Counted from the first letter of the stretch, positions 4,285 through 58,766 are shown. The stretch: DNA of 64,000 nt from an uncultured Pseudomonadales bacterium (GCA_943787705.1 CALSNL010000002.1:451694-515693), one strand, 5' to 3'. Notes: generated from the letters alone by a model not told the origin. Translations and numbers: made by a program.

Positions 4285-5838
4285 TTATTTAATCGGCGGA
4301 GGTGTAGTGAATGTATGGTAAGGCGCTGGCGATGGAATAGTCCATTCCAAACCTTCAGGATTATCCCAAACCGCATCCGTTGCTTTCTCGCCACCGCGAA
4401 TGGTTTTGATAACAATAAACAAGAAGAACACTTGGCTAAAGCCGAATAAGAATGCGCCCATGCTAGCAACTTGGTTAAAGTCAGCAAACTGCAATGCATA
4501 GTCAGGAATTCGACGAGGCATGCCCGCTAGACCCACAAAGTGCATTGGGAAGAAAGTTAAGTTTAAACCGACAAACGATAACCAAAAATGCGCTTTACCT
4601 AATCGCTCGTCATACATGTTGCCACACCACTTCGGCAACCAGTAATACACCGCAGCGAAAATCGAGAATACCGCACCTGGCACTAATACATAGTGGAAGT
4701 GAGCAACTACGAAATAAGTATCATGGTATTGGAAATCGGCTGGCGCAATCGACAGCATCAAGCCAGAGAAACCACCAATGGTAAACAAGATAACAAAAGC
4801 AATGGCAAACAGCATTGGCGTTTCAAATGTCATTGAACCGCGGAACATGGTCGTTACCCAGTTGAAAACTTTAACGCCTGTTGGCACCGCAATTAACATG
4901 GTTGCGTACATAAAGAAGAGCTCGCCCGCAATTGGCATGCCGACCGTAAACATATGGTGAGCCCATACAATAAACGATAAGAAAGCAATCGACGCCGTTG
5001 CATACACCATAGAGGCATAACCAAATAACGGCTTACGCGCAAACGTTGGGATAATCGCCGAAACGATACCGAACGCTGGCAAGATCATAATATACACTTC
5101 AGGATGACCGAAGAACCAGAACACGTGCTGGAACAATACCGGATCACCACCACCTGCAGCACTAAAGAAACTCGTGCCAAAGTGAATGTCCATTAACATC
5201 ATTGTTACGCAACCGGCTAATACTGGCATTACCGCAATTAATAAGTAAGCCGTGATTAACCAAGTCCAAACGAATAATGGCATTTTCATTAACGTCATAC
5301 CTGGCGCGCGCATATTCAATATCGTTGCAATGATATTGATTGAACCCATAATCGATGACGCACCCATAATGTGAACGGCAAAGATAAAGTAAGTTACGCT
5401 TGGCGGTGCATAAGTTGTTGATAACGGTGCGTAGAATGTCCAACCGAAGTTAGGACCACCACCTTCCATTAATAACGTTGATGCCAACAATGTGAAGGCA
5501 AACGGTAAAATCCAGAAGCTCCAGTTGTTCATGCGTGGCAGGGCCATATCTGGCGCGCCAACCATCATTGGAATCATCCAGTTCGCTAAGCCAACAAACG
5601 CTGGCATAACAGCACCAAACACCATCACGAGACCGTGCATGGTTGTCATTTGATTGAAAAATTCAGGCTCAACTAATTGTAAACCTGGCTGAAATAACTC
5701 AGCTCGAATGACTAGCGCAAATACGCCGCCCATAAGAAACATGGCAAAACTAAACCATAAGTACATTGAGCCAATATCTTTGTGGTTAGTTGTAAATAAC
5801 CAACGCCCAAAACCTTTTGCCGGACCGTGATCACCCAT
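4285..5838 (-). CDS. coxA: cytochrome c oxidase subunit I (aa3-type)
   Basis: 517 aa. Motifs TTNHKDIGSMYL, GHPEVYILILP-like (GHPEVYIMILPAFG) and VVAHFHYVL. Confidence 0.97.
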   Translation of the reverse strand: MGDHGPAKGFGRWLFTTNHKDIGSMYLWFSFAMFLMGGVFALVIRAELFQPGLQLVEPEFFNQMTTMHGLVMVFGAVMPAFVGLANWMIPMMVGAPDMALPRMNNWSFWILPFAFTLLASTLLMEGGGPNFGWTFYAPLSTTYAPPSVTYFIFAVHIMGASSIMGSINIIATILNMRAPGMTLMKMPLFVWTWLITAYLLIAVMPVLAGCVTMMLMDIHFGTSFFSAAGGGDPVLFQHVFWFFGHPEVYIMILPAFGIVSAIIPTFARKPLFGYASMVYATASIAFLSFIVWAHHMFTVGMPIAGELFFMYATMLIAVPTGVKVFNWVTTMFRGSMTFETPMLFAIAFVILFTIGGFSGLMLSIAPADFQYHDTYFVVAHFHYVLVPGAVFSIFAAVYYWLPKWCGNMYDERLGKAHFWLSFVGLNLTFFPMHFVGLAGMPRRIPDYALQFADFNQVASMGAFLFGFSQVFFLFIVIKTIRGGEKATDAVWDNPEGLEWTIPSPAPYHTFTTPPPIK

Positions 5839-9921: not shown

Positions 9922-11190
9922 TCATAAGCGTTCAATTTTATAGTGCACATGGTAGGGCGGCTTCAACACAAGATGACGGCGATAAGGTGTTATGGACTGA
10001 ATAGAAATCTGATTCATAGACCGTAAATAACTCGGCGTATTAAGACCTAACAAGCTATCTTCATTTGCGGTAATCCGATAACGGCCTTGGCGTAAAATAG
10101 GTGAGCGTACCTCTATATGATCTACCTTTCTTAGCAAACGATAACCATTAAATGGCGACGCTAAAGGTTCACCAATAAAATTTCCCTGCCCTGGCATATG
10201 CACGCTTTTCCAATAAGCTTCAAGCATTGTCGCACCAAACCCATAATGCCACATGGCCAACAAAGGATTAGGAAATTTTTGCACAAAGTTACAAGGCTCT
10301 ATAGCCGAGCCATAACTGCCCGTCGCCCCCGCTTCTAACCATCGCATTGCACTCATCTGATTAGAATCAGTTAACTGACCACCTGCCGAGGTCAAATGAT
10401 CGGCCATTGCGCCAGGTAAAAATGAAAGCGTTTCTAAATGCGGTACAGCTACCGCGCCCGTAAAATAGAATAAAATATCAGAGCGATTTTTTATTCCATC
10501 AGAATTTAAAATATGTAAATCATATGTATCTTTGAAATTTTTGTTTACCTCGTCAAAAAAAACATTACGAACTGAGCGTGTTTTATCTGACGTCGTCAAT
10601 AAAAAGGCTCGCCCCAATGGCTGCGTGTCATCGGAGGCAATACCACGATCAATTAACTGAGTCGCCTCTTGTGTATTTTTTGCAGCGAGCATCATGGTGG
10701 GTCGCATTTTAAAATCACGATAAGGCGCAACACTCATAGAATTATAATAAGGCGAGGTACGTGTTTTTGTGCAGCCGCTTGCACAATAGGCAACGTTATA
10801 GCCAAAAGTAAATGCCGCTGTCACACTCATACAGCCAACCTGATACGGCTTTTCCCACGCCAACGCTAATGCCTGAATATTATCGCCTAACTTAGCATCC
10901 AATAATTTTTTTTGCACAGCAAACTCACCGGGTCCAATAACGGTTTTATTCGCATCCAATGAAATACCAATAATATTCTCAAACGGTATTTTACGATGCT
11001 GCTGATAATAGTAAGCAATGTCTTCGCTTTTTTTATCTCCCTTAATATAAACTACCGCTAACTCTGATGGCTTTAAACCCACTTTCGGCAACTCAACAAA
11101 AAGCCCAACAGAAGCCATTATCTTTGAAGTAAAAAATAATAAAAGGAAAAAGGCGCTCTTAAAAAAAGCGTTTAGAGAAATTATATTCAC
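9922..11190 (-). CDS. secreted protein of unknown function (possibly TIGR03790-like; unverified recollection)
   Basis: 422 aa with a hydrophobic N-terminal signal-like segment. Conserved-looking block GAMADHLTSAGG...AGATGSYGSAIEPCN...KFPNP...EAYWKSV..PGQGNFIGEPLASPF. I recognise no catalytic family. Confidence 0.6.
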   Translation of the reverse strand: MNIISLNAFFKSAFFLLLFFTSKIMASVGLFVELPKVGLKPSELAVVYIKGDKKSEDIAYYYQQHRKIPFENIIGISLDANKTVIGPGEFAVQKKLLDAKLGDNIQALALAWEKPYQVGCMSVTAAFTFGYNVAYCASGCTKTRTSPYYNSMSVAPYRDFKMRPTMMLAAKNTQEATQLIDRGIASDDTQPLGRAFLLTTSDKTRSVRNVFFDEVNKNFKDTYDLHILNSDGIKNRSDILFYFTGAVAVPHLETLSFLPGAMADHLTSAGGQLTDSNQMSAMRWLEAGATGSYGSAIEPCNFVQKFPNPLLAMWHYGFGATMLEAYWKSVHMPGQGNFIGEPLASPFNGYRLLRKVDHIEVRSPILRQGRYRITANEDSLLGLNTPSYLRSMNQISIQSITPYRRHLVLKPPYHVHYKIERL

Positions 11191-11193
11191 GTG

Positions 11194-12033
11194 TTATAAA
11201 CTATTGCGAATAGATTGGATAACCGCATGCGTATCTGGCTTTACATTACGCCAAAGTCTAAAAGATTCTGCCGCCTGCTCAACTAACATACCTAAACCGT
11301 CAGCAATTTTTCTTGCTCCCTGCTTAGCGGCTAGCTGCAAGAAAGGCGTAGGTCCCTTTGCATACATCATGTCATAACAACAAGCACCGTTAAAACATTC
11401 ATTCGCTAATGGCAGAGTATCACCACTGAGACTTGCGCTAGTGCCATTAATAATAATATCGAAAGGCTCTGTCAGCTCATCATATTGCTTAGCACTTAAC
11501 TCACAGCCAGCATCGTTAGCCAACGGTTGAAAAGCGCGACTTAATTGCTCGGCTTTTTCAAGCGTGCGGTTAGCAATCACAATGGATGCTGGTTTAGCCA
11601 ATAATAACGGTTCAAGAATGCCGCGCACAGCGCCGCCCGCACCTAAAACTAAAATATTGGCGCGCTCAATAGGCCACTGCAAATTACTTTGCAAATCGGC
11701 TAACAAACCACAGCCATCAGTATTATCACCAACAATAATGCCGCCTTTATTTATTAAGGTATTCACTGCACCTGCGCGTCGCGCTCGCTCACTTAATTGA
11801 TCAGCAAACTGATAAGCGTCTAATTTAAACGGTACGGTAATATTTAAACCCGCACCCTCACTGTCAAAAAAAGCGCGAGCACTGACTTCAAACTCACCCA
11901 GCGCCACAAGCTGCCGCTGATAATTCATCGCTTGTTTTAATTGCTCAGCAAACTGCTGATGAATATCCGGCGATCGGCTATGCTCAATTGGATTTCCAAA
12001 CACAGCGTAAGAATTTTTATTTACATCGTTCAT
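11194..12033 (-). CDS. aroE: shikimate dehydrogenase
   Basis: 279 aa. Motifs FGNPIEHSRSPDIH, NITVPFK, GAGGAVRGI. Confidence 0.95.
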   Translation of the reverse strand: MNDVNKNSYAVFGNPIEHSRSPDIHQQFAEQLKQAMNYQRQLVALGEFEVSARAFFDSEGAGLNITVPFKLDAYQFADQLSERARRAGAVNTLINKGGIIVGDNTDGCGLLADLQSNLQWPIERANILVLGAGGAVRGILEPLLLAKPASIVIANRTLEKAEQLSRAFQPLANDAGCELSAKQYDELTEPFDIIINGTSASLSGDTLPLANECFNGACCYDMMYAKGPTPFLQLAAKQGARKIADGLGMLVEQAAESFRLWRNVKPDTHAVIQSIRNSL

Positions 12034-12089
12034 TATTTATTTTCTTCGCTCTCAATTGTTATTGCTTTACGCAGCTATAAAAATTTATT

Positions 12090-13034
<945 letters not shown>

Positions 13035-33854: not shown

Positions 33855-34000
33855 CTAGTTAATAGAGGTGTAACACAGCATTATGGTCATAGTTCTAATT
33901 TTAGAATTACTAAAGGCTCCAAGAACGCTACCAGCATAAAAAATCACTAGAAATACTTAGGCCTAGAAAAGAGGCGCAATTGTAGCGGCAAAGAGTAGAC

Positions 34001-34171
34001 TTATCCACAACTTTTATGATTATTTTAAGTCCTATTAAAGAAAGGTAACCCATATTAAAACCATTAAATATCAACAACTTGAGAAAAAACAAACAAAAAC
34101 ATTGAAACAATCAAATAAAAGATTGTTTAAACAGATAAGAAGTTATTAACATATTAGCAAGCTGTGGATAT
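34001..34171. promoter_or_regulatory. DnaA boxes in the dnaA-rpmH intergenic region (dnaA autoregulation and/or Pseudomonas-type oriC candidate)
   Basis: Perfect TTATCCACA at 34001-34009. TGTGGATAT (reverse complement ATATCCACA, 8/9) at 34163-34171. Weaker TGTGGGAAA at 34174-34182. A strongly AT-rich tract at about 34010-34160 lies between them. Confidence 0.5.
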
Positions 34172-34448
34172 CTTGTGGGAAAGAAAGAAAAACTAACAAT
34201 TTAAAACAACTGTTGTAAGTACACACTACAGCTAAAAGCTTATCTTTAAAGGTGTAACTGAAAAAGACATTGTATATTTAGCAAACCCAATGATAAAAAA
34301 CAGCGCTGATAAATGAAAAGCTAAAAGGATCAACGATATAACCCAAGAAAAACCCTCCTAACAAGAAAAAAGTACATGCTTCTATTTATAGCTATTGCTA
34401 TAAAATGACAGCACTTTAAAATGATTTGCTATTAATTAGCGTTCGGCA

Positions 34449-34477
34449 TTGATCCCAGAAGCTTTTATGCGTAGAAT
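34449..34477 (+). promoter_or_regulatory. candidate sigma70 promoter of rpmH
   Basis: TTGATC (34449-34454), 17 bp spacer, TAGAAT (34472-34477). About 75 nt upstream of the rpmH ATG. Confidence 0.45.
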
Positions 34478-34553
34478 CCTGCGCCCTTTTGTGGGTGTTT
34501 GCATGCCTTAGGCACAAACATTTTGAACACGTAAATAATTTGGTAATAGAGCA

Positions 34554-34688
34554 ATGAAAAGAACTTTTCAACCCAGTACTTTAAAGCGTAAACGCAGTCA
34601 CGGCTTCCGTGCTCGTATGGCAACTAAAAATGGACGCGCACTTATTAATCGCCGTCGCGCTAAAGGCAGAAAACGTTTAACTGCGTAA
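34554..34688 (+). CDS. rpmH: 50S ribosomal protein L34
   Basis: Below the ORF-track size cut-off. My own translation is [44 protein letters not shown] (44 aa), the canonical L34 sequence. Confidence 0.97.
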
Positions 34689-34841
34689 TATCTATTATTG
34701 ATCGCCAACGATATAGAGCTACTTTTATTGATAATAAATCAGTAATTCTATGTAACATCTGCTTTATATCGTGCGGCCGTCAGTGTTCGCTCTCTTCTTA
34801 GCATTTAAGTAGTCTGAGTTAAGTAGCCTGAGTTAATCAGT

Positions 34842-37388: not shown

Positions 37389-38771
37389 ATGGACAACGAT
37401 ACTATTACCGCTATTGCTACTGCAGCAGGAAAAGGCGGTATTGGTATTGTTCGTCTTTCAGGTCCAAAATCTTTAGCTATTGCTGCGCAATTAACACAAA
37501 CAGATTTATCTCCTCGCCACGCATTATTCTCATCCTTTGTTGATAAAAATCTTGAAAAGATTGATGAAGGTATCGCCTTATATTTTCCTAGACCACACTC
37601 CTTTACCGGTGAAGACGTTGTTGAGCTACAAGGGCATGGTGGAGCTGTTGTTCTTAATCTTTTACTCGCAGAAACAGTAAAGCTTGGGGCACGTATAGCA
37701 AGGCCTGGTGAGTTCTCAGAGCGCGCATTCTTAAACGATAAAATAGATTTAGTCCAAGCTGAAGCAATTGCGGATATTATTGAAAGTCGCTCAGAGACAG
37801 CTGCAAGGTCAGCCATGCGGTCATTGAGTGGTGAGTTTTCAAAAAAGATACAGACACTGACTAACGAGATAACTAAGCTTAGAATTTATGTAGAAGCCGC
37901 AATTGATTTTCCTGAAGAAGAGGTTGATTTTGTTTCTGACGGTTACGTATTGAATGAGCTAAACCAGTTAAGTAGTTCAATAGAAGCTATTTGGCGGCAG
38001 GCAAAGCAAGGCAGTTTAATTCGTGATGGTGTATCGGTTGTTATTATTGGGAAACCGAATGCGGGTAAATCGAGTTTATTAAACTTATTAGCTGGTGACG
38101 ATTTAGCGATCGTTAATCAACGAGCCGGCACGACTCGCGATATTTTACGCGAGGATATACAAATTGATGGATTGCCTTTACGGATAATAGATACCGCAGG
38201 ATTGCGTGATTCTGATGACGAGATAGAGCAAGAAGGAATACGTCGTGCTAAAAAAGAAATAGAAAAAGCTGATGTTATTTTATTTATGCGTGATTCGGTT
38301 ACGGAAGGTGCGTTTGCTGAAGATAAAAAACAAACAATAGAAAGTATTCATAAAGAGCTTTCAAGTTTTGAAATAATACCGCTTAAATCAACTTCGTTTA
38401 TTGTTGTGAATAATAAAATAGATATAAGTGGTTCTAGGGCTTCGGTGGATACGAATAATTATTTTACTGAGGTTTCTTTGTCGGCCAAAACAGGTGATGG
38501 ATTTAACTTGTTTACAAAGAGCCTTAAGACGCTTTGTGGTTTTAGTGATAGTGAGAATAACTTTGTTGCACGTAGTCGTCATATTGAGGCGATTGATAAT
38601 GCGCGGGGTTATATTTTAGAGGGTAAGAAACAGTTGCTGGAGAATCAAGCGGGTGAGCTGCTAGCTGAGGATTTAAGACAGGCGCAGAATTATTTGGGGA
38701 TGATAACAGGTAAGGTTTCTTCTGATGATTTGCTTGGTGAGATATTTTCTAGTTTTTGTATTGGGAAATGA
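37389..38771 (+). CDS. mnmE: tRNA modification GTPase MnmE
   Basis: 460 aa. DTITAIATAAGKGGIGIVRLSG, G1 motif GKPNAGKSSLLN, DTAGLR, C-terminal CIGK. Confidence 0.96.
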   Translation: MDNDTITAIATAAGKGGIGIVRLSGPKSLAIAAQLTQTDLSPRHALFSSFVDKNLEKIDEGIALYFPRPHSFTGEDVVELQGHGGAVVLNLLLAETVKLGARIARPGEFSERAFLNDKIDLVQAEAIADIIESRSETAARSAMRSLSGEFSKKIQTLTNEITKLRIYVEAAIDFPEEEVDFVSDGYVLNELNQLSSSIEAIWRQAKQGSLIRDGVSVVIIGKPNAGKSSLLNLLAGDDLAIVNQRAGTTRDILREDIQIDGLPLRIIDTAGLRDSDDEIEQEGIRRAKKEIEKADVILFMRDSVTEGAFAEDKKQTIESIHKELSSFEIIPLKSTSFIVVNNKIDISGSRASVDTNNYFTEVSLSAKTGDGFNLFTKSLKTLCGFSDSENNFVARSRHIEAIDNARGYILEGKKQLLENQAGELLAEDLRQAQNYLGMITGKVSSDDLLGEIFSSFCIGK

Positions 38772-38797
38772 TTTTTTCTTTTATTTAATAGGGTTTT

Positions 38798-39596
38798 TAT
38801 ATTCTGGGTTTTTACTTTTTCTGTTTGATTTTTCAATCAAGACCGTCGGGGTGGCCCGACACGCCAGTCACTTTTCTTTGCTTGTGCAAAGAAAAGTAAC
38901 CAAAAGAAAGCACACAATCTGACGAAGATTGACCCCGATATAACCTATTCGCTTTGGGGTGGTTTTATCCAGTACATCTTAGCAGCGCCTACGAAAACGT
39001 TTTTCACTCGACTTAATTGCTCGTCAATATCTGAGCTCGCCTCCAGCCAATATCATTCTGATCCCTCAGACTTTTCAAAACACAATGCGGCTACAACGAA
39101 CAAGTTCAGTAGAGCTTCTTTTTATTTTAGAACAAGTAAAAACCGTGCCTAACGGCCGGCTTTTACTATTGAGCTCCGCATGCCGCTCAAAAGGAAAAAA
39201 AGAAAAAAGAGTAGAACTACTATTTCGCTCAAAGGTAAAATTGGACGTAAAGCTTGATGCAAGTGCAGCACAAAAAAAGTACCCCCTATACCGCTTGGCG
39301 ATAATCTCTCTGGAACTGCTGGACAGAAAACACTACGAGATGCACCCGTCGTGGTTAAGCTTCGCCGTTAAGCTTACGGCATTTTTTGGTTACTTTTTGT
39401 TGCTGTAGACAAAAAGTGACTGGCTGTCGGGCCACCCCCGACGACCTTGAATTTAAAACTTAAAAAATAGAAGTAAACAACCAGAATATAAGAGCACTAT
39501 CAGGTGGGGCTTAAAGATCTAGATTCTGGCTGTCGGGCCACCCCCGACGACCTTGAACTTAAAACTCAAACAAAAAAGTAAAACCTCAGAATATCG
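38798..39596 (+). mobile_element. non-coding MITE-like structured element, copy A (614 bp core at 38837-39450 plus repeated arm units)
   Basis: Terminal inverted repeats TCAAGACCGTCGGGGTGGCCCGACACGCCAGTCACTTTT (from 38837) and AAAAGTGACTGGCTGTCGGGCCACCCCCGACGACCTTGA (to 39450). GC hairpins GTCGGG-N5-CCCGAC at 38845-38860, 39426-39442 and 39532-39548. Subterminal AT hairpins at 38871-38896 and 39393-39416. About 97.5 percent identical to the reverse complement of 56552-57165. No credible ORF. Confidence 0.6.
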
Positions 39597-39622
39597 ACTA
39601 ACCAAAACAACTAACACTACGC

Positions 39623-40177
39623 TTATGCCGCCTGCCAATCCCGACTCCCACCCCGAAACCTCGACTTCAAATATTCCATCTGATCACCAATAATCTGCCT
39701 ATTACTCAAATACATAAACTCATAAATATTCGGCGTAAACGGCACCGCCAGTAACTCCATCCCCGCCTCCTCTGGTGTTCGTGCTCCTTTAAAGCTATTA
39801 CAACGCTGGCAAGCAGCCACAAGGTTCTGCCAGCTATCCTGACCTCCCTGCGAAGATGGAATAATATGATCTCGAGTTAACAAGCCATAAGGAAACTGTT
39901 TACCACAATAAAGACAAAAGTGATCATCACGCCTAAAAAGCGTTCGATTAGATAAAGCTGGAGTTAAACATTGTCGCGAAGTCTTACCATCGCAAGCAAT
40001 AATTGGAGGGATAGATAATATTGATCGATAACCTTTGCGATTGTAGCCGCCATGGAGAATAGAACGCCTACTCCCTAAACTCCATACCACTTGTTGCTTA
40101 ACGCAAAGTGTTGCTGCAATTTCCTTAGAAACCCAACATTGTGGCAAACCAGCTTTATTTAATCGCAATATTTTCAC
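39623..40177 (-). CDS. free-standing HNH endonuclease (McrA/COG1403-like, with N-terminal domain of unknown function)
   Basis: 184 aa. HNH/zinc motif CLYCGKQ...LTRDHIIPSSQGGQDSWQNLVAACQRCNSFKG. Occupies the slot between mnmE and mnmG, where enterics carry mioC. Confidence 0.85.
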   Translation of the reverse strand: MKILRLNKAGLPQCWVSKEIAATLCVKQQVVWSLGSRRSILHGGYNRKGYRSILSIPPIIACDGKTSRQCLTPALSNRTLFRRDDHFCLYCGKQFPYGLLTRDHIIPSSQGGQDSWQNLVAACQRCNSFKGARTPEEAGMELLAVPFTPNIYEFMYLSNRQIIGDQMEYLKSRFRGGSRDWQAA

Positions 40178-40259
40178 AAGTTACCTTAAATAAGTTGTGC
40201 TAAATAAATTAAATATCAGTTTTTTAATAATAAACGCAGTTTTTTTTCATCTCAATAGC

Positions 40260-40530
40260 TGTGTGTAAACACTTGAGCAGCTGTGCATAAAGAACATATT
40301 TATACACAGAAATACGGCCTTTTGATTTTTATGCCAAAAGTTTAAGTTTTTAACTCTCAGCTTGGCAGCAGCTTAGACACGCTTTACCTCTGCAGTTATG
40401 CTTGCTGTAAGTAGCTGTAATCAATAAGTAAAAAGGGGTTTTCCACAGCAAAATGCTTTGCTTATTATTACTATATTATATAAATATCTATATATACATA
40501 AAGACATATACATAAGAAATAAAAAGATAA
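40260..40530. other. candidate E. coli/Vibrio-type oriC: DnaA-box cluster plus AT-rich unwinding region upstream of mnmG
   Basis: DnaA-box matches: TGTGTGTAA 40260-40268 (8/9), TGTGCATAA 40282-40290 (reverse complement TTATGCACA, 9/9 to TTATNCACA), TTATACACA 40300-40308 (9/9), TTTTCCACA 40439-40447 (8/9). An AT-rich stretch at 40450-40530 follows, with the tandem 12-13-mers ATATACATAAAGA (40492-40504) and ATATACATAAGA (40506-40517) on the mnmG-proximal side. I saw no GATC sites here. Confidence 0.5.
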
Positions 40531-40679
40531 GAAAGTCCATTCAAAGGTCTCAAGCAATACGTTTAATCAGGGCTGTTCAGCCTGAAATTTAATGTTATAT
40601 TGCGCGGCCTGCTTGCAAGGATGTCGTTAAATAACCATCCTAAGCTAACAAACCAATACGAGATACAGACTCAAAACTC

Positions 40680-54516: not shown

Positions 54517-56349
54517 ATGTGTGGAATAGTGGGTGCTGTAGCGCAGCGAGATATCGCAGCGATATTATTAGAAGGCTTAAAGCGTTTAGAGTATCGCGGT
54601 TATGATTCTGCCGGTCTTTCGGTAACTGATAAACAAGGCATTAATCAGCGAATTCGTCGAGTAGGTAAAGTGCAAGCATTAGCTGATGCAGTTGCTGAAG
54701 CTGGCGCGCAAGGCGGTACTGGTATTGCACATACACGTTGGGCGACGCATGGCGAGCCTAATGAAAATAATGCTCACCCACATTTATCGAATGAGCGTAT
54801 TACCATTGTTCACAACGGCATTATAGAAAACCACGAAGATTTAAGAGTTTCGCTAACAGCAAAAGGTTATGCTTTTGTTACTGATACTGACAGCGAAGTG
54901 ATTTGCCATTTAATTAATGAAGAATTAAAAAGTGCTGATTCGTTAGTAGCGGCAGTACAAAAGGCGGTTGTTCAACTTGATGGTGCTTACGGTACTGTTG
55001 TTATGGACAATAACGATCCTGATAGATTAGTGGTTGCAAGATCGGGTAGCCCACTGGTTATTGGTTACGGCATTGGCGAACACTTTGTTGCCTCTGATCA
55101 ATTAGCCTTATTACCGGTAACGCGTCGCTTTGCATTTCTTGAAGAAGGTGATGTTGCAGAAATAACACGTTCAGAAGTTAAAATTTTTGATTGTGATGGC
55201 ACGCCTGTAGAGCGTGAAATTACAGAATCAACAATTAGTCATGATACCGGTGACAAGGGTACTTTTCGTCACTATATGCTTAAAGAAACGTATGAGCAGC
55301 CAATTGCGATTCAGCGAACATTGGAAGGTCGGCTAGAAGCGGGTAAAGTTTTAGATCGATCTTTTGGTGAATCAGCCGAAAAGTTATTACCCAATGTTGA
55401 GCATGTACAAATTATTGCTTGCGGTACCAGTTACCACGCAGGTATGACAGCGCGTTATTGGTTTGAAGAATTTGCCGGCGTGTCGTGTAATGTAGAAATT
55501 GCATCAGAGTATCGCTATAGAAAATCGTTTGTTCGTCCTAATAGTTTATTAGTGACTATCTCGCAGTCGGGTGAAACAGCAGATACACTAGCGGCATTGC
55601 GTTTAGCTCAGCAACAAAATTATATGACTAGCCTGACGATTTGTAATGCGCCAGGTTCTTCACTAGTACGTGAATCAGATATGGCTTATATGATGGAGGC
55701 CGGTGTTGAAATCGGTGTTGCATCAACAAAAGCGTTCACCGTGCAGTTAACCGGTTTAATAATGTTAGCAACAGCCATTGGCCATCACAAAAATTTATCG
55801 TCAGAAGCTGAAGCGAAAATTGTGCAAGCCTTGCAAAGCCTGCCAACAAAAATAGAGCAAGCCCTTGCAATGGATGCGGATATTGAAGTGTTAGCAGAAG
55901 ATTTTGCAGATAAGCATCACAGCTTATTTCTAGGCCGTGGTGATCAATACCCGATTGCAATGGAAGGAGCGCTTAAGTTAAAAGAGATTTCTTATATTCA
56001 TGCCGAAGCTTATGCGGCGGGTGAATTAAAGCATGGGCCACTAGCGTTAATTGATGCTGATATGCCGGTTATTGTTGTTGCGCCGAATAATGAATTGGTT
56101 GAAAAATTAAAATCGAATGTTGAAGAAGTGCGTGCGCGTGGCGGATTGATGTATGTATTTGCTGATAAAGCAGCATCATTTAAATCGGACGATACAATGA
56201 AGGTATTACATGTGCCAAGTTGTGATCCATTATTAGCGCCAATTATTTATACCATCCCACTTCAATTGCTGTCTTATCATGTTGCGATTATTAAGGGGAC
56301 TGATGTTGATCAGCCTCGTAATTTGGCTAAGTCGGTTACGGTGGAGTAA
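54517..56349 (+). CDS. glmS: glutamine--fructose-6-phosphate aminotransferase
   Basis: 610 aa. MCGIVGAV N-terminal nucleophile. SIS domains. C-terminal KSVTVE. Confidence 0.98.
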
Positions 56350-56411
56350 GTTTTTATAAGCTTGCGCCTAGAGACGATGGGTTTTTTAGGTTTATCGTTT
56401 TATTAGGTGCC

Positions 56412-57307
56412 GGTTGTTTACTTTATTTGTTTGAGTTTTCAATCAAGGTCGTCGGGGGTGGCCCGACAGACTGAAGCCAGAGTTTTATGCATAAACTTTT
56501 AGTTATATTGGTATATTCTGAGGGTTTACTTTTTTTGTTTAAGTTTTAAATTCAAGGTCGTCGGGGGTGGCCCGACAGCCAGTCACTTTTTGTCTACAGC
56601 AACAAAAAGTAACCAAAAAATGCCGTAAGCTTAACGGCGAAGCTTAACCACGACGGGTGCATCTCGTAGGGTTTTCTGTCCAGCAGTTCCAGAGAGATTA
56701 TCGCCAAGCGGTATAGGGGGTACTTTTTTTGTGCTGCACTTGCATCAAGTTTTACGTCCAATTTTACCTTTGAGCGAAATAGTAGTTCTACTCTTTTTTC
56801 TTTTTTTCCTTTTGAGCGGCATGCGGAGCTCAATAGTAAAAGCCGGCCGTTAGGCACGGTTTTTACTTGTTCTAAAATAAAAAGAAGCCTACTGAACTTG
56901 TTCGTTGTAGCCTCATTGTGTTTTGAAAAGTCTGAGGAATCAGAATGATATTGGCTGGAGGCGAGCTTAGATATTGACGAACAACTAAGTCGAGTGAAAA
57001 TCGTTTTCGTAGGCGCTGCTAAGATGTACTGGATAAAACCATCCCAAAGCGAATAGGTTATATCGGGATCAATCTTCGTCAGATTGTGTGCTTTCTTTTG
57101 GTTACTTTTCTTTGCACAAGCAAAGAAAAGTGACTGGCATGTCGGGCCACCCCCGACGACCTTGAACTTAAAACTTCAAAGAAAACATAAAAGTCCAGAA
57201 TATAAGAATACTATGAGATCCAGTTTAAAGATCTATATTCTAGCTATCGCCCCACCCCCGACGGTCTTGACCTTAAAACAAAAAAAATTAAAAGGATACC
57301 TCGACTC
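56412..57307 (-). mobile_element. non-coding MITE-like structured element, copy B (614 bp core at 56552-57165, inverted relative to copy A, with two arm units on each side)
   Basis: The reverse complement of 56552-57165 aligns with 38837-39450 with about 15 differences by hand alignment. GC hairpins at 56451-56467, 56560-56576 and 57141-57157, plus a degenerate one at 57246-57262. The outermost recognisable arm begins about 62 bp after the glmS stop. Confidence 0.6.
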
Positions 57308-57362
57308 ATAACATCAAACATAAAGCCGATATCTAAAAGTTAAATAAAAAGAGGAGGGGGGG

Positions 57363-58766
57363 TTAAGCTAGTGCTAGCTTTTCGTTTTTCTTTTCGGCCA
57401 TTTTCTTTTGCGTTTCTTCAATATCAGCATTAGTCCGCTGCTTCGTAATGCCAGGTATACCAAGACACAATAATTTGGTTATCTCAGTTCTTGGCAGCGC
57501 CTCACTTAAATAAAAGCCCTGAATCGTATCGCAGCCTAACTCTTGCAATAAATCCGCATGCTCAACATTCTCAACACCTTCAGCCACAACGCGCATATCT
57601 AAAGCATGAGCAACATCAATAATGGCCTGAGTAATAGCCACATCAACTTTATTGTCGAGCAAGTTAGCAATAAACATCTGGTCAATCTTCAAGATATCAA
57701 CAGGCAATGTTTTTAATAATTTAAAAGTTGAGTAGCCGGTACCAAAATCATCAATGGCAATCTCGATGCCCATATCACGCAAACCGGTTAAGGTCTCAGA
57801 TGTTTTTGCTAACGTATCTAAAATCAGTGATTCAGTTAGCTCAATAATTAATTGCTCTGGTGGAAATCCAGTACGTTTTAAAATACGTTTTATCTGTACC
57901 AGCATATCCTGACGAATAAGCTGCTTCGCGGATAAGTTAACCGCAATCTTCGCATGAGGAACGCCATCTTCAATCCACTTGGCACCATGTCGACAGGCTG
58001 TCTCTAAAACCATTTCACCAATGCCTGAGATTAAACCCGCATTCTCAGCAATAGGGATAAACTCATTGGGTGATACCCAGCCCAAATCGTCATGCTTCCA
58101 ACGCACTAATGCCTCAATGGAAGTGATGTGGCCGGTCGCGAGATTCATCTTAGGTTGGTAATGAACAGTTAGGTCTTTGCGCGAAATAGCATGGCGCAAT
58201 TCAATTTCAAGATTAAGACGTCGCAGTGATGGCGCGTTAGAGCTACTGCGAGTAAAGAATTTAACACTGTCACCGCCAACAGCTTTGGCATTTTGTAACG
58301 CACTAATAGCTTGGTGCAATAAAGTTTGCTCATTATCTGCTTTGTTAGGATAAAGACTAATACCGATACTGGCTGTGGTCATTAATTCTTGCTGGTCTAT
58401 AAAAACCGGTTTGCGAATAACGTTGAGTAAACGATTAGCAAGTTGACGAAGTTGAGAGGCATTGTCGACACCCTCACTTAACACGGCATATTCATCAGAA
58501 CCCAAATGCATGAGCAGATGATCACCATTGAGAGCATGTGTTAGTCGGTCGGTAGTGACATCAAGAAGCTGTTGTCCCACTTCTGGGCCAAGCGTTGATG
58601 TGATTGTGTTAAAGCGATCAAGATCGATAAAGAGAAGTGCTAGAGATTTTTTACGGAGCCGTGCCCGTGCGATGGCAAGTTGCAATCGCTGCTTGATGTC
58701 TATACGGCCAGCCAACAGTTTGGCATTTTCAAAAGCCGTAGCACCAAAAAAAGTATCAGTACTCAA
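57363..58766 (-). CDS. GGDEF-EAL protein (degenerate GGDEF site, intact-looking EAL phosphodiesterase); no sensor domain
   Basis: 467 aa. The GGDEF position reads LGSDEYA. EAL domain motifs EALVRW, NLS, ELTES, DDFGTGYS, KIDQMF, EGVE. Confidence 0.88.
   Translation of the reverse strand: MSTDTFFGATAFENAKLLAGRIDIKQRLQLAIARARLRKKSLALLFIDLDRFNTITSTLGPEVGQQLLDVTTDRLTHALNGDHLLMHLGSDEYAVLSEGVDNASQLRQLANRLLNVIRKPVFIDQQELMTTASIGISLYPNKADNEQTLLHQAISALQNAKAVGGDSVKFFTRSSSNAPSLRRLNLEIELRHAISRKDLTVHYQPKMNLATGHITSIEALVRWKHDDLGWVSPNEFIPIAENAGLISGIGEMVLETACRHGAKWIEDGVPHAKIAVNLSAKQLIRQDMLVQIKRILKRTGFPPEQLIIELTESLILDTLAKTSETLTGLRDMGIEIAIDDFGTGYSTFKLLKTLPVDILKIDQMFIANLLDNKVDVAITQAIIDVAHALDMRVVAEGVENVEHADLLQELGCDTIQGFYLSEALPRTEITKLLCLGIPGITKQRTNADIEETQKKMAEKKNEKLALA

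Follow-up and report, generated by a model that had tools for sequence, protein, structure and literature searches.

The stretch of DNA that we analyzed (64 kb; the window) is the dnaA neighborhood of a gammaproteobacterium and carries gyrB-recF-dnaN-dnaA, rpmH-rnpA-yidD-yidC-mnmE, a gene for an HNH endonuclease, mnmG-rsmG-parAB, the atp operon, glmU, and glmS. The Pfam scan covered 44 of its 56 open reading frames (ORFs) of at least 100 amino acids; the others were named by position or lie nested within larger genes. Between mnmE (37389-38771) and the HNH gene (39623-40177, minus strand), both confirmed by Pfam, lies the repeat element that a first-pass annotation had placed there (copy A). 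A hairpin search found a second element, which that annotation had overlooked, at about 56405-57307 (copy B), between glmS, which ends at 56349, and a GGDEF/EAL gene (57363-58766, minus strand). We call these two positions site A and site B. The window had also been reported to hold no transposase, integrase, or RAYT gene, and none was found among the 44 scanned ORFs, with two ORFs lacking any match. A search for tRNA and tmRNA genes found none.

Copy A is 851 bp long. Its left arm is a single unit reading outward (38798-38867, minus strand), placed by an nhmmer search with a unit profile (model positions 1 to 71) and by the sequence. The GC hairpin of this unit, H1 (38845-38860), has a 4-nt loop, one loop base being deleted. 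Inward of the arm lies an AT-rich hairpin, H2, of type a (GTCAC TTTTCTTTGC TTGT GCAAAGAAAA GTAAC; 38867-38900), an inverted repeat with compensatory stem changes over 26 copies. The core that follows (38901-39388, plus strand) is noncoding and of the short variant: it lacks about 107 to 130 nt that long variants carry at a purine-rich tract (about 39195-39215). At either end of the core, the inverted repeat continues in degenerate form for some 45 nt. A pattern scan found an outward-facing terminator-like hairpin with a T-run at the right end of the core (GCCGT TAAGCTT ACGGC ATTTTTT; 39364-39390, plus strand), which is present in all aligned right-type ends, and a structural counterpart at the left end (CAATCT TCGTC AGATTG, then a T-rich run; about 38905-38945, minus strand). 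The right H2 is of type b (GTTAC TTTTTGT TGCTGTAG ACAAAAA GTGAC; 39389-39420), again an inverted repeat. Beyond it come an inner arm unit (39420-39490, plus strand; H1 at 39426-39442), a linker placed from the sequence (39491-39525, plus strand), and an outer arm unit (39526-39594, plus strand; H1 at 39532-39548) that ends 28 nt before the HNH stop codon. Together with the flanking CCAGAAT and ATTCTGG, the linker forms a further hairpin, and the same linker type recurs in other copies.

These parts largely bear out what the first-pass annotation had described. The arm unit, of about 70 nt in copy A, does occur once on the left (38798-38867) and twice on the right (39420-39478 and 39526-39584, with a spacing of 106 nt), and the AT-rich hairpins described just inside the repeats are present at 38867-38900 and 39389-39420, each beside AAAAGTAACCAAAA. 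The GC hairpin described for every repeat, GTCGGG-N5-CCCGAC, holds for both right copies (39426-39442 and 39532-39548) and fails for the left one, the loop of which has 4 nt and not five. The inverted arms pair 38829-38875 with 39412-39458 over 47 nt at 72% complementarity. In the window as a whole, the 17-mer of the H1 hairpin has 6 matches, against 0.02 expected. No T-run follows H1 or H2, whichever direction is read.

Copy B is about 900 bp long, is inverted relative to copy A, and has two units per side and a core about 97% identical to that of copy A. Its glmS-side arm (56405-56582, minus strand) consists of an outer unit (56405-56472) and an inner unit (56512-56582), with H1 hairpins at 56451-56467 and 56560-56576. 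The middle (56582-57134, minus strand), delimited by alignment and sequence, comprises an H2 of type b (56582-56613), the core (56614-57100), and an H2 of type a (57101-57134). In the arm on the GGDEF/EAL side (57134-57308, plus strand), an inner unit (57134-57204) is followed by a decayed outer unit (57240-57307) in which the hairpin ATCGCCCCACCCCCGAC is broken. The outer boundary, 57308|57309, was set by comparison with conspecific strains bearing a different insert. A Tn7-like element at attTn7 was considered for this site and rejected, there being no Tns genes, ends, or duplication.

The same architecture defines a family. Its members measure 0.85 to 1.13 kb and have a core of 0.5 to 0.7 kb between inverted arms. 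Each arm starts with H2 and continues with one to four tandem modules of about 105 bp, and each module consists of H1 (GTCGGG-CCACC-CCCGAC) and an A-rich tail with a CTTGAA/CTTAAA-like hexamer periodicity. Unlike the alternating units of BIMEs, the units inside one arm share one orientation, with a period of about 105 nt. A unit-profile search found at least 129 units. In a scan with GGGCCACCCCCGACGRYCTTGA that took one genome per species, at least 65 stretches carried the motif; these came from four records, namely, two Cellvibrionales MAGs, one uncultured Gammaproteobacteria MAG, and one Pseudomonadales single-cell genome. Among the stretches listed, which were mainly from two MAGs, at least 46 belonged to one and at least 16 to another, and all lay outside ORFs. 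The motif was within about 800 nt of the end of the stored stretch in 64 of the 65 matches listed. Wherever the sequence continues inward of the motif, it is always the family core, at 85 to 95% identity.

Metagenome contigs that encode an identical MnmE point the same way: 3 of 10 cross the element and 7 of 10 stop 6 to 585 nt after mnmE, which is the signature of a repeat that breaks assemblies. The element accounts for the breaks found every 15 to 30 kb in assemblies of this marine clade. From the fragment sizes in the most fragmented MAG and the two copies in 64 kb here, we estimate, without having a count, that a genome probably holds dozens of copies and possibly around a hundred. The copy search proposed at first pass thus turned up dozens more copies in related Cellvibrionales/Pseudomonadales MAGs. 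That annotation had recognized no known family in the sequence, and we found no match to one either: blastn of the element against plasmid and phage collections, Rfam, and a full-text literature search for the hairpin sequence, which returned no paper, were all negative.

Simpler forms of the hairpin occur farther away. In a distant single-cell genome (SAG, L065), H1 forms the tip of a simple palindrome, about 110 nt long, that lies behind the glnA terminator and has a DNA fold z-score of -6.5. Relatives of higher GC content have the hairpin between murA and hisG, on its own and as a terminator-like stem. A metagenome scan with a hairpin of 9-bp stem gave 15 matches, mostly chance occurrences in high-GC coding sequence, with three solitary terminator-like hairpins among them.

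The H2 stem comprises 12 pairs, and over 26 distinct ends two of its columns are compensatory (UA to CG, 15/11; UA to GC, 16/6). Two further H2 subtypes differ by paired substitutions, and a longer H2 variant holds one more GC hairpin, in which paired variation is seen as well. These compensatory substitutions show that structure, and not sequence, is conserved in the modules. The outward-reading strand has three G.T/G.U positions without variation, and these wobbles hint that it is this strand that folds, as DNA or RNA. The loop of H1 is GGTGG in the left arm and CCACC in the right arm, which puts the hairpins in inverted orientation relative to each other. H1 was intact in all 36 inner units and in 9 of 41 outer units, the latter often being shortened as well; since a locus had to have one intact hairpin to be ascertained, the apparent conservation of the hairpins is inflated.

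The element had been described as noncoding, and no conserved ORF or Pfam match speaks against that. The sole long ORF of the core (107 amino acids) is frameshifted in other copies, and neither it nor six-frame translations matched Pfam. An Rfam cmscan gave no match at an E value of ≤1 in 38000-40500 and none at gathering score across the window, and an Rfam search of the L077 flank was also without a match. Group II introns, integron attC sites, and CRISPR were considered as identities for the element and set aside, being unmatched by Rfam, orientation, or spacing.

A noncoding core could still be a multicopy gene for a long structured or antisense RNA, with the arms as processing or termination signals. 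Strongly conserved blocks in the core, the outward terminator-like hairpins at both of its ends, the fit of the wobble pairs to the outward-reading strand, and single-sequence fold z-scores of about -3.3 and -3.2 are consistent with such a gene. However, the terminal inverted repeat largely accounts for those z-scores, and RNAalifold on 14 cores, run on one strand only, gave essentially no consensus structure: -0.43 kcal/mol with a penalizing covariation term and only one compensatory pair. Between copies, the core is 85 to 95% identical, which does not exceed the identity seen in ordinary intergenic DNA across these species (80 to 94%); the core also tolerates an indel of 107 to 130 nt and the replacement of patches, and even a threshold of E ≤ 1 brought up no Rfam family. 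An RNA gene is therefore a very unlikely explanation of the element.

Comparison with relatives shows that copy A was inserted. In five relatives with HNH proteins 67 to 79% identical, mnmE and the HNH gene are convergent, and only 7 to 46 bp separate their stop codons, so the 851 bp of copy A were added between them. The empty-site comparison suggested at first pass thus has an outcome, in that element-free mnmE-HNH sites do exist in relatives. The HNH gene itself was considered as a partner of the element and ruled out, since it is a conserved neighbor of mnmE in many relatives that lack the element.

The insertions are old. Site A is occupied in CAXAHI and JABIQF MAGs and site B in CAXAHI, with flanks 85 to 89% identical. 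Of 16 JABIQF sites, at least 6 also hold an element in the CAXAHI sample, which is incomplete (seven alignments of at least 600 nt). At orthologous sites of different species, the flanks align at about 90%, and the number of units and the sequence of the element differ. Within the clade, all sites open to comparison are shared, and none of them gave evidence of a recent transposition. Of the flanks, 57 of 70 (81%) face the 3' end of a gene. Taken together, these results show that the copies were inserted behind gene 3' ends, mostly between convergent genes, in a common ancestor of several species and have stayed at their ancestral insertion sites since. The terminators of neighboring genes are often visible and point into the element.

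Position and age raise the question of a BIME-like host element of convergent intergenic regions, kept by selection as an insulator or terminator, an mRNA 3' stabilizer, or a platform for gyrase or nucleoid proteins. The preference for gene 3' ends, the retention of sites across species in a compact genome, and the maintenance of the hairpins through compensatory change would all be expected of it, as would the outward-facing terminator-like hairpins at both core ends and the solitary terminator-like stems in related taxa. However, the relatives need only their 7 to 46 bp between mnmE and the HNH gene, and the other convergent gene pairs in the window, with gaps of 2 to 68 bp, are free of the element. 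H1 and H2 lack the T-run of a terminator, and the invariant wobbles favor the outward-reading strand and not the strand of read-through from neighboring genes. Moreover, the conspecific strains without the element at site B carry an unrelated island of 6.9 kb there instead, with no clean empty site; no repeats are common to the element and the ends of this island. We consider a selected host element unlikely, but a host function could equally well account for the fact that about 3% of a compact genome has been retained for so long.

The first-pass annotation had read the arms as multiple binding sites of a transposase. In its full form, this view makes the element a MITE that arose by internal deletion of a DDE transposon (Tn7-, Mu-, IS21-, or Tn402-like), with the arm units as transposase sites. 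The composite inverted ends with repeated modules, the noncoding and multicopy nature of the element, and the position of copy B downstream of glmS, the classic Tn7 attachment region, are in keeping with it. The ends themselves are not. Target-site duplications, which the first-pass annotation had failed to find, are indeed absent from the outward flanks of 85 arms and from both complete copies in the window, and no terminal sequence or constant flanking oligonucleotide is shared across the 85 arms. The units number one to four and differ in number at orthologous sites, the outer units are decayed, whereas functional termini would be expected to show the reverse, and the modules are conserved as hairpins with compensatory changes. 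A full-length relative with a transposase between the same ends, which the first pass had proposed to look for, did not appear in about 400 kb of sampled flanks, and no multicopy ORFs (IS elements) were found in those flanks. All arms for which the inner side is present lead into the noncoding core, save one copy interrupted by a phage.

That phage supplies a further argument. A Mu-like prophage of about 40 kb (rebuilt as a contig of 40.5 kb), with genes for MuA, a MuB-like ATPase, portal, F, and gp36, sits inside the H2 loop of an otherwise ordinary copy of the element. We had considered the arms as the ends of a Mu-like phage because two viral contigs have arms beside Mu head genes. This was rejected: the prophage is bounded by ends of its own (TGTAG...CTACA, of the TG..CA type) and by a 5-bp duplication, CAAAC. 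The arms are thus not ends of the Mu type. With a transposase-bearing phage that uses unrelated ends, and with the hairpins and arms behaving as described, the derivation from a DDE transposon is unlikely.

Strains record what has happened to the copies after insertion. At site A, strains with flanks 99.3 to 99.8% identical have elements that are only 90.5 to 97.8% identical, the differences lying in patches, and in one strain, other sequence has taken the place of about 130 bp at the core's right end. At site B, the spacers of strains with identical GlmS and GGDEF/EAL proteins measure 909, 1,011/1,013, 1,086, 1,125, and 1,134 bp. One site B version has lost a unit through the fusion of two direct units. 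In another, which has three units, (CTTGAA/CTTAAA)n is expanded and the far flank is different. Three versions have a core of the long type (about 107 to 130 nt extra at the purine-rich tract) that is flipped and has hybrid junctions at TTTTGGTTAC. The number of units ranges from one to four and differs at one site between species and even between strains. Thus, the elements now evolve mainly by recombination between copies, in the form of conversion patches, replacement of the core in either orientation, and the gain and loss of units between direct repeats.

Flipped cores could also suggest an inverton, in which a site-specific invertase flips the core between the inverted arms and thereby redirects an internal promoter. 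Both orientations do occur at the same site in conspecific strains, long inverted repeats flank the core, and other strains have a Resolvase/invertase-family gene at this locus. However, the flipped cores at site B are different sequence variants (long type, 87 to 94% identical) with mosaic junctions, and they therefore look like replacement by another copy and not like a clean flip. Because inverted arms allow a donor copy to pair in either orientation, flipped cores are explained without a dedicated invertase. The Resolvase/invertase-family gene occurs at site B only in strains that lack the element there, no invertase adjoins any copy of the element, and the elements face gene 3' ends and not promoters. 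An inverton is thus highly improbable.

On balance, we lean toward reading the element as a clade-specific family of noncoding, nonautonomous palindromic repeats, REPIN- and foldback-MITE-like in character, and regard this as somewhat probable. A single ancient dispersal would have carried the copies into 3' intergenic "safe" sites, with vertical inheritance thereafter. Gene conversion centered on the core and inner arm would keep the copies similar, and the outer reiterations would decay. The original dispersal may have depended on an enzyme that acted in trans on folded hairpin DNA, as RAYT/IS200-type HUH transposases do for REPINs, and would not have used a DDE transposase binding repeated sequence sites; we infer this from the conservation at the level of structure, the lack of target duplications and termini, and the REPIN precedent. 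The family would then persist as a REPIN-like, vertically inherited replicator. Against this reading, the element is about 10 times as long as a REPIN, and its arm units are tandem and not alternating. It also counts against it that neither the scanned ORFs of the window nor the flanks of about 400 kb yielded a mobilizing enzyme and that no site in the clade showed recent movement.

A related possibility is a long-lived replicator that renews itself in place, the core and inner hairpins homing into or converting existing copies in either orientation and pushing older arms outward. Such renewal would explain why the inner units are intact and the outer ones progressively decayed. If it were true, genomes of this clade would contain about 100 dispersed hot spots of recombination and inversion, possibly with antisense transcription into whichever neighbor the core faces. 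We hold renewal in place to be decidedly unlikely.

Under the favored reading of vertically inherited palindromic repeats, the element belongs to a kind that is already known, the intergenic palindromic repeat. The family itself is previously undescribed and belongs to a group of uncultured marine gammaproteobacteria. Its architecture (about 1 kb, with a core, tandem hairpins in inverted arms, and flipping and mosaics at strain level) matches no described bacterial family that we recognized. The variation among strains, with units gained and lost, cores flipped, mosaics formed, and flanks changed, shows that the copies are active substrates of recombination; this makes them likely to drive genome rearrangement in a lineage that is abundant and uncultured. 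The mobilizing enzyme, if found, would define a new hairpin-recognizing transposition system.

Of the known systems, the Tn7/Mu type has TG..CA ends, a 5-bp duplication, and a fixed set of sites at each end; the arms of our element have one to four units and are decayed on the outside. PATEs derived from IS200/IS605 resemble our element in having subterminal hairpins, no target-site duplication or classical terminal sequence, and, as would be inferred for our element, recognition of single-stranded hairpins. However, the hairpins at the two ends of IS200/IS605 elements and PATEs lie on the same strand, with no inverted arms, whereas those of our element have asymmetric loops and are inverted. 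Furthermore, IS200/IS605 insertion occurs 3' of a fixed tetra- or pentanucleotide, and our element has no constant flanking oligonucleotide. Eukaryotic Foldback (FB) transposons have long inverted repeats made of variable numbers of tandem subrepeats around a noncoding middle and are prone to recombination and inversion. They make target-site duplications and have coding partners, and the likeness to our element is one of architecture only, with no sequence relationship.

Like the BIMEs of enterobacteria, the element combines hairpin units with linkers into a mosaic, lies in 3' intergenic regions, and varies among strains in its number of units. Successive BIME units point in alternating directions, and a long unique core is absent from BIMEs. 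In our element, by contrast, the units are direct within an arm, and two arms are inverted around a core. Typical bacterial MITEs measure tens to a few hundred base pairs, well below the length of the element. Otherwise it resembles MITEs such as Correia, ERIC, and MITEAba12 (PMC10969869, PMC3184786) in being noncoding, multicopy, intergenic, and presumably mobilized in trans and in having terminal inverted repeats, which in this family are the arms (47 to 53 nt, 72 to 76% complementary, with perfect cores of 14 nt). It differs from them in lacking a target-site duplication and sharp termini, in that no parent IS was identifiable in the sampled flanks, and in having arms made of a variable number of hairpin modules.

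Another close comparison is with the REPIN/REP-RAYT system (Bertels and Rainey; doi 10.1101/2021.07.10.451892, PMC3116915), the members of which are likewise extragenic, palindromic, nonautonomous, and present in many copies and have a short GC-rich hairpin. A REPIN of about 100 bp consists of two inverted REPs (a palindrome of about 14 bp each) and a short spacer, whereas our element is 0.85 to 1.13 kb long and has a conserved core of 0.5 to 0.7 kb, a second, AT-rich hairpin, and one to four direct units per arm; only the simple form of L065 (about 110 nt) fits that description. The REP-RAYT system includes a single-copy RAYT (HUH Y1) gene that the same REP flanks. No GTAG-type 5' motif was noticed by eye in the element, and no RAYT occurs among the Pfam-scanned ORFs of the window or was recognizable in the flanks of about 400 kb, for which the test was one for multicopy ORFs only. 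REPINs are extragenic, are inherited vertically, and persist for millions of years (doi 10.1101/2021.07.10.451892). Our element, too, is inherited vertically at stable positions, with long-term persistence at orthologous sites, and its distant SAG relative is a plain palindrome of about 110 nt. The forms described here make up a natural series from a solitary hairpin through a 110-nt palindrome to a 1-kb composite. The family is thus a second example, beside REPINs and much larger and structurally different, of a noncoding repeat that persists vertically in a compact bacterial genome.

Three G.T (G.U) wobble positions, located in H2 (the AT-rich hairpin between core and arm) and H1 (the GC hairpin of the arm unit), were invariant in 26 of the 26 distinct element ends that we aligned (alignment A5, columns 61/96, 64/93, and 101/120). 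The wobbles always lie on the outward-reading strand, and the complementary strand would give A.C mismatches at the same positions. A form of H1 with a 9-bp stem, CCGTCGGG-CCACC-CCCGACGG, was also found in other contexts. In the single-cell genome of a member of the Pseudomonadales (L065:5400-5512), it caps a simple ~110-nt palindrome that follows the glnA terminator; in a gammaproteobacterial contig of 61% GC (L199:5340-5390), it forms a solitary terminator-like stem in the murA/hisG spacer. In the arm unit, the A-rich tail has a hexamer period, CTTGAA/CTTAAA, and some copies show this repeat expanded to 10 or more hexamers, forming a microsatellite, as in L216:12840-12920 from another strain (~1010 to 1085 of the site B spacer) and around 4884-4924 of a further stretch, L051.

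In one copy of the element, a Mu-like transposable prophage of ~40 kb sits within the H2 loop. Its sequence, IMGVR_UViG_3300009434_001054, was reassembled from stretches L180, L158, L078, and L076, and L077 is also concerned. The prophage ends are TGTAG...CTACA, flanked by a 5-bp duplication, CAAAC, and its genes include those for MuA, a MuB-like AAA protein, an HTH repressor, DUF1804, the Mu portal, Mu F, gp36, and Phage_tail_S. The gene order is unusual in that genes for the head and tail are oriented leftward from the center and those for A, B, terminase, portal, and F are oriented rightward.

Beside copy A, we examined a McrA-like HNH gene of 184 amino acids (window 39623-40177) that is convergent with mnmE. 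The gene is a conserved, single-copy mnmE neighbor in many Pseudomonadales and Oceanospirillales genomes, with Motiliproteus, Spartinivicinus, and Pseudohongiellaceae among the named matches, and it does not represent a mobile homing endonuclease here. Copy A lies 0.6 kb from the HNH-mnmG spacer (40178-40679; 29 to 32% GC), which carries one-mismatch DnaA boxes at 40282, 40300, and 40439. In the dnaA-rpmH spacer (33855-34700; 25 to 31% GC), the DnaA box at 34001 is perfect and that at 34163 has one mismatch. Either of these AT-rich spacers could hold oriC. Elsewhere in the window, two minus-strand open reading frames of 212 and 422 amino acids (848-1486 and 9922-11190) gave no Pfam match at an E value of ≤1e-5.

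The second copy in the window, copy B, is inverted and occupies the spacer between glmS and the GGDEF/EAL gene (56405-57307); it was absent from the first-pass annotation. Its arms have two units per side, and its core is ~97% identical to that of copy A. In the strain represented by L216, the glmS-side element (11834-12954) has three units on its far side and is followed by ogt-like and methyltransferase genes, not GGDEF/EAL, with a further element at the contig end (19752-20002). Together, these features suggest a genome rearrangement with its breakpoint inside the element. Certain conspecific strains, whose GlmS and GGDEF/EAL proteins are identical, have a 6.9-kb island in place of the element at the glmS site (L214:11834-18613, from ENA ERZ10646689 contig_5487; also in L217, L209, and L212). 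The island codes for a 199-amino-acid Resolvase-family recombinase, MORN-repeat proteins, HIT, an HNH_2/DUF3427 protein, and NUDIX. The island's left end is directly at the glmS stop codon, and its right end, ~80 nt before the GGDEF/EAL stop, is the exact end of the outer arm unit in other strains. An island with these ends and genes at this position suggests that the glmS site is a hot spot resembling attTn7.
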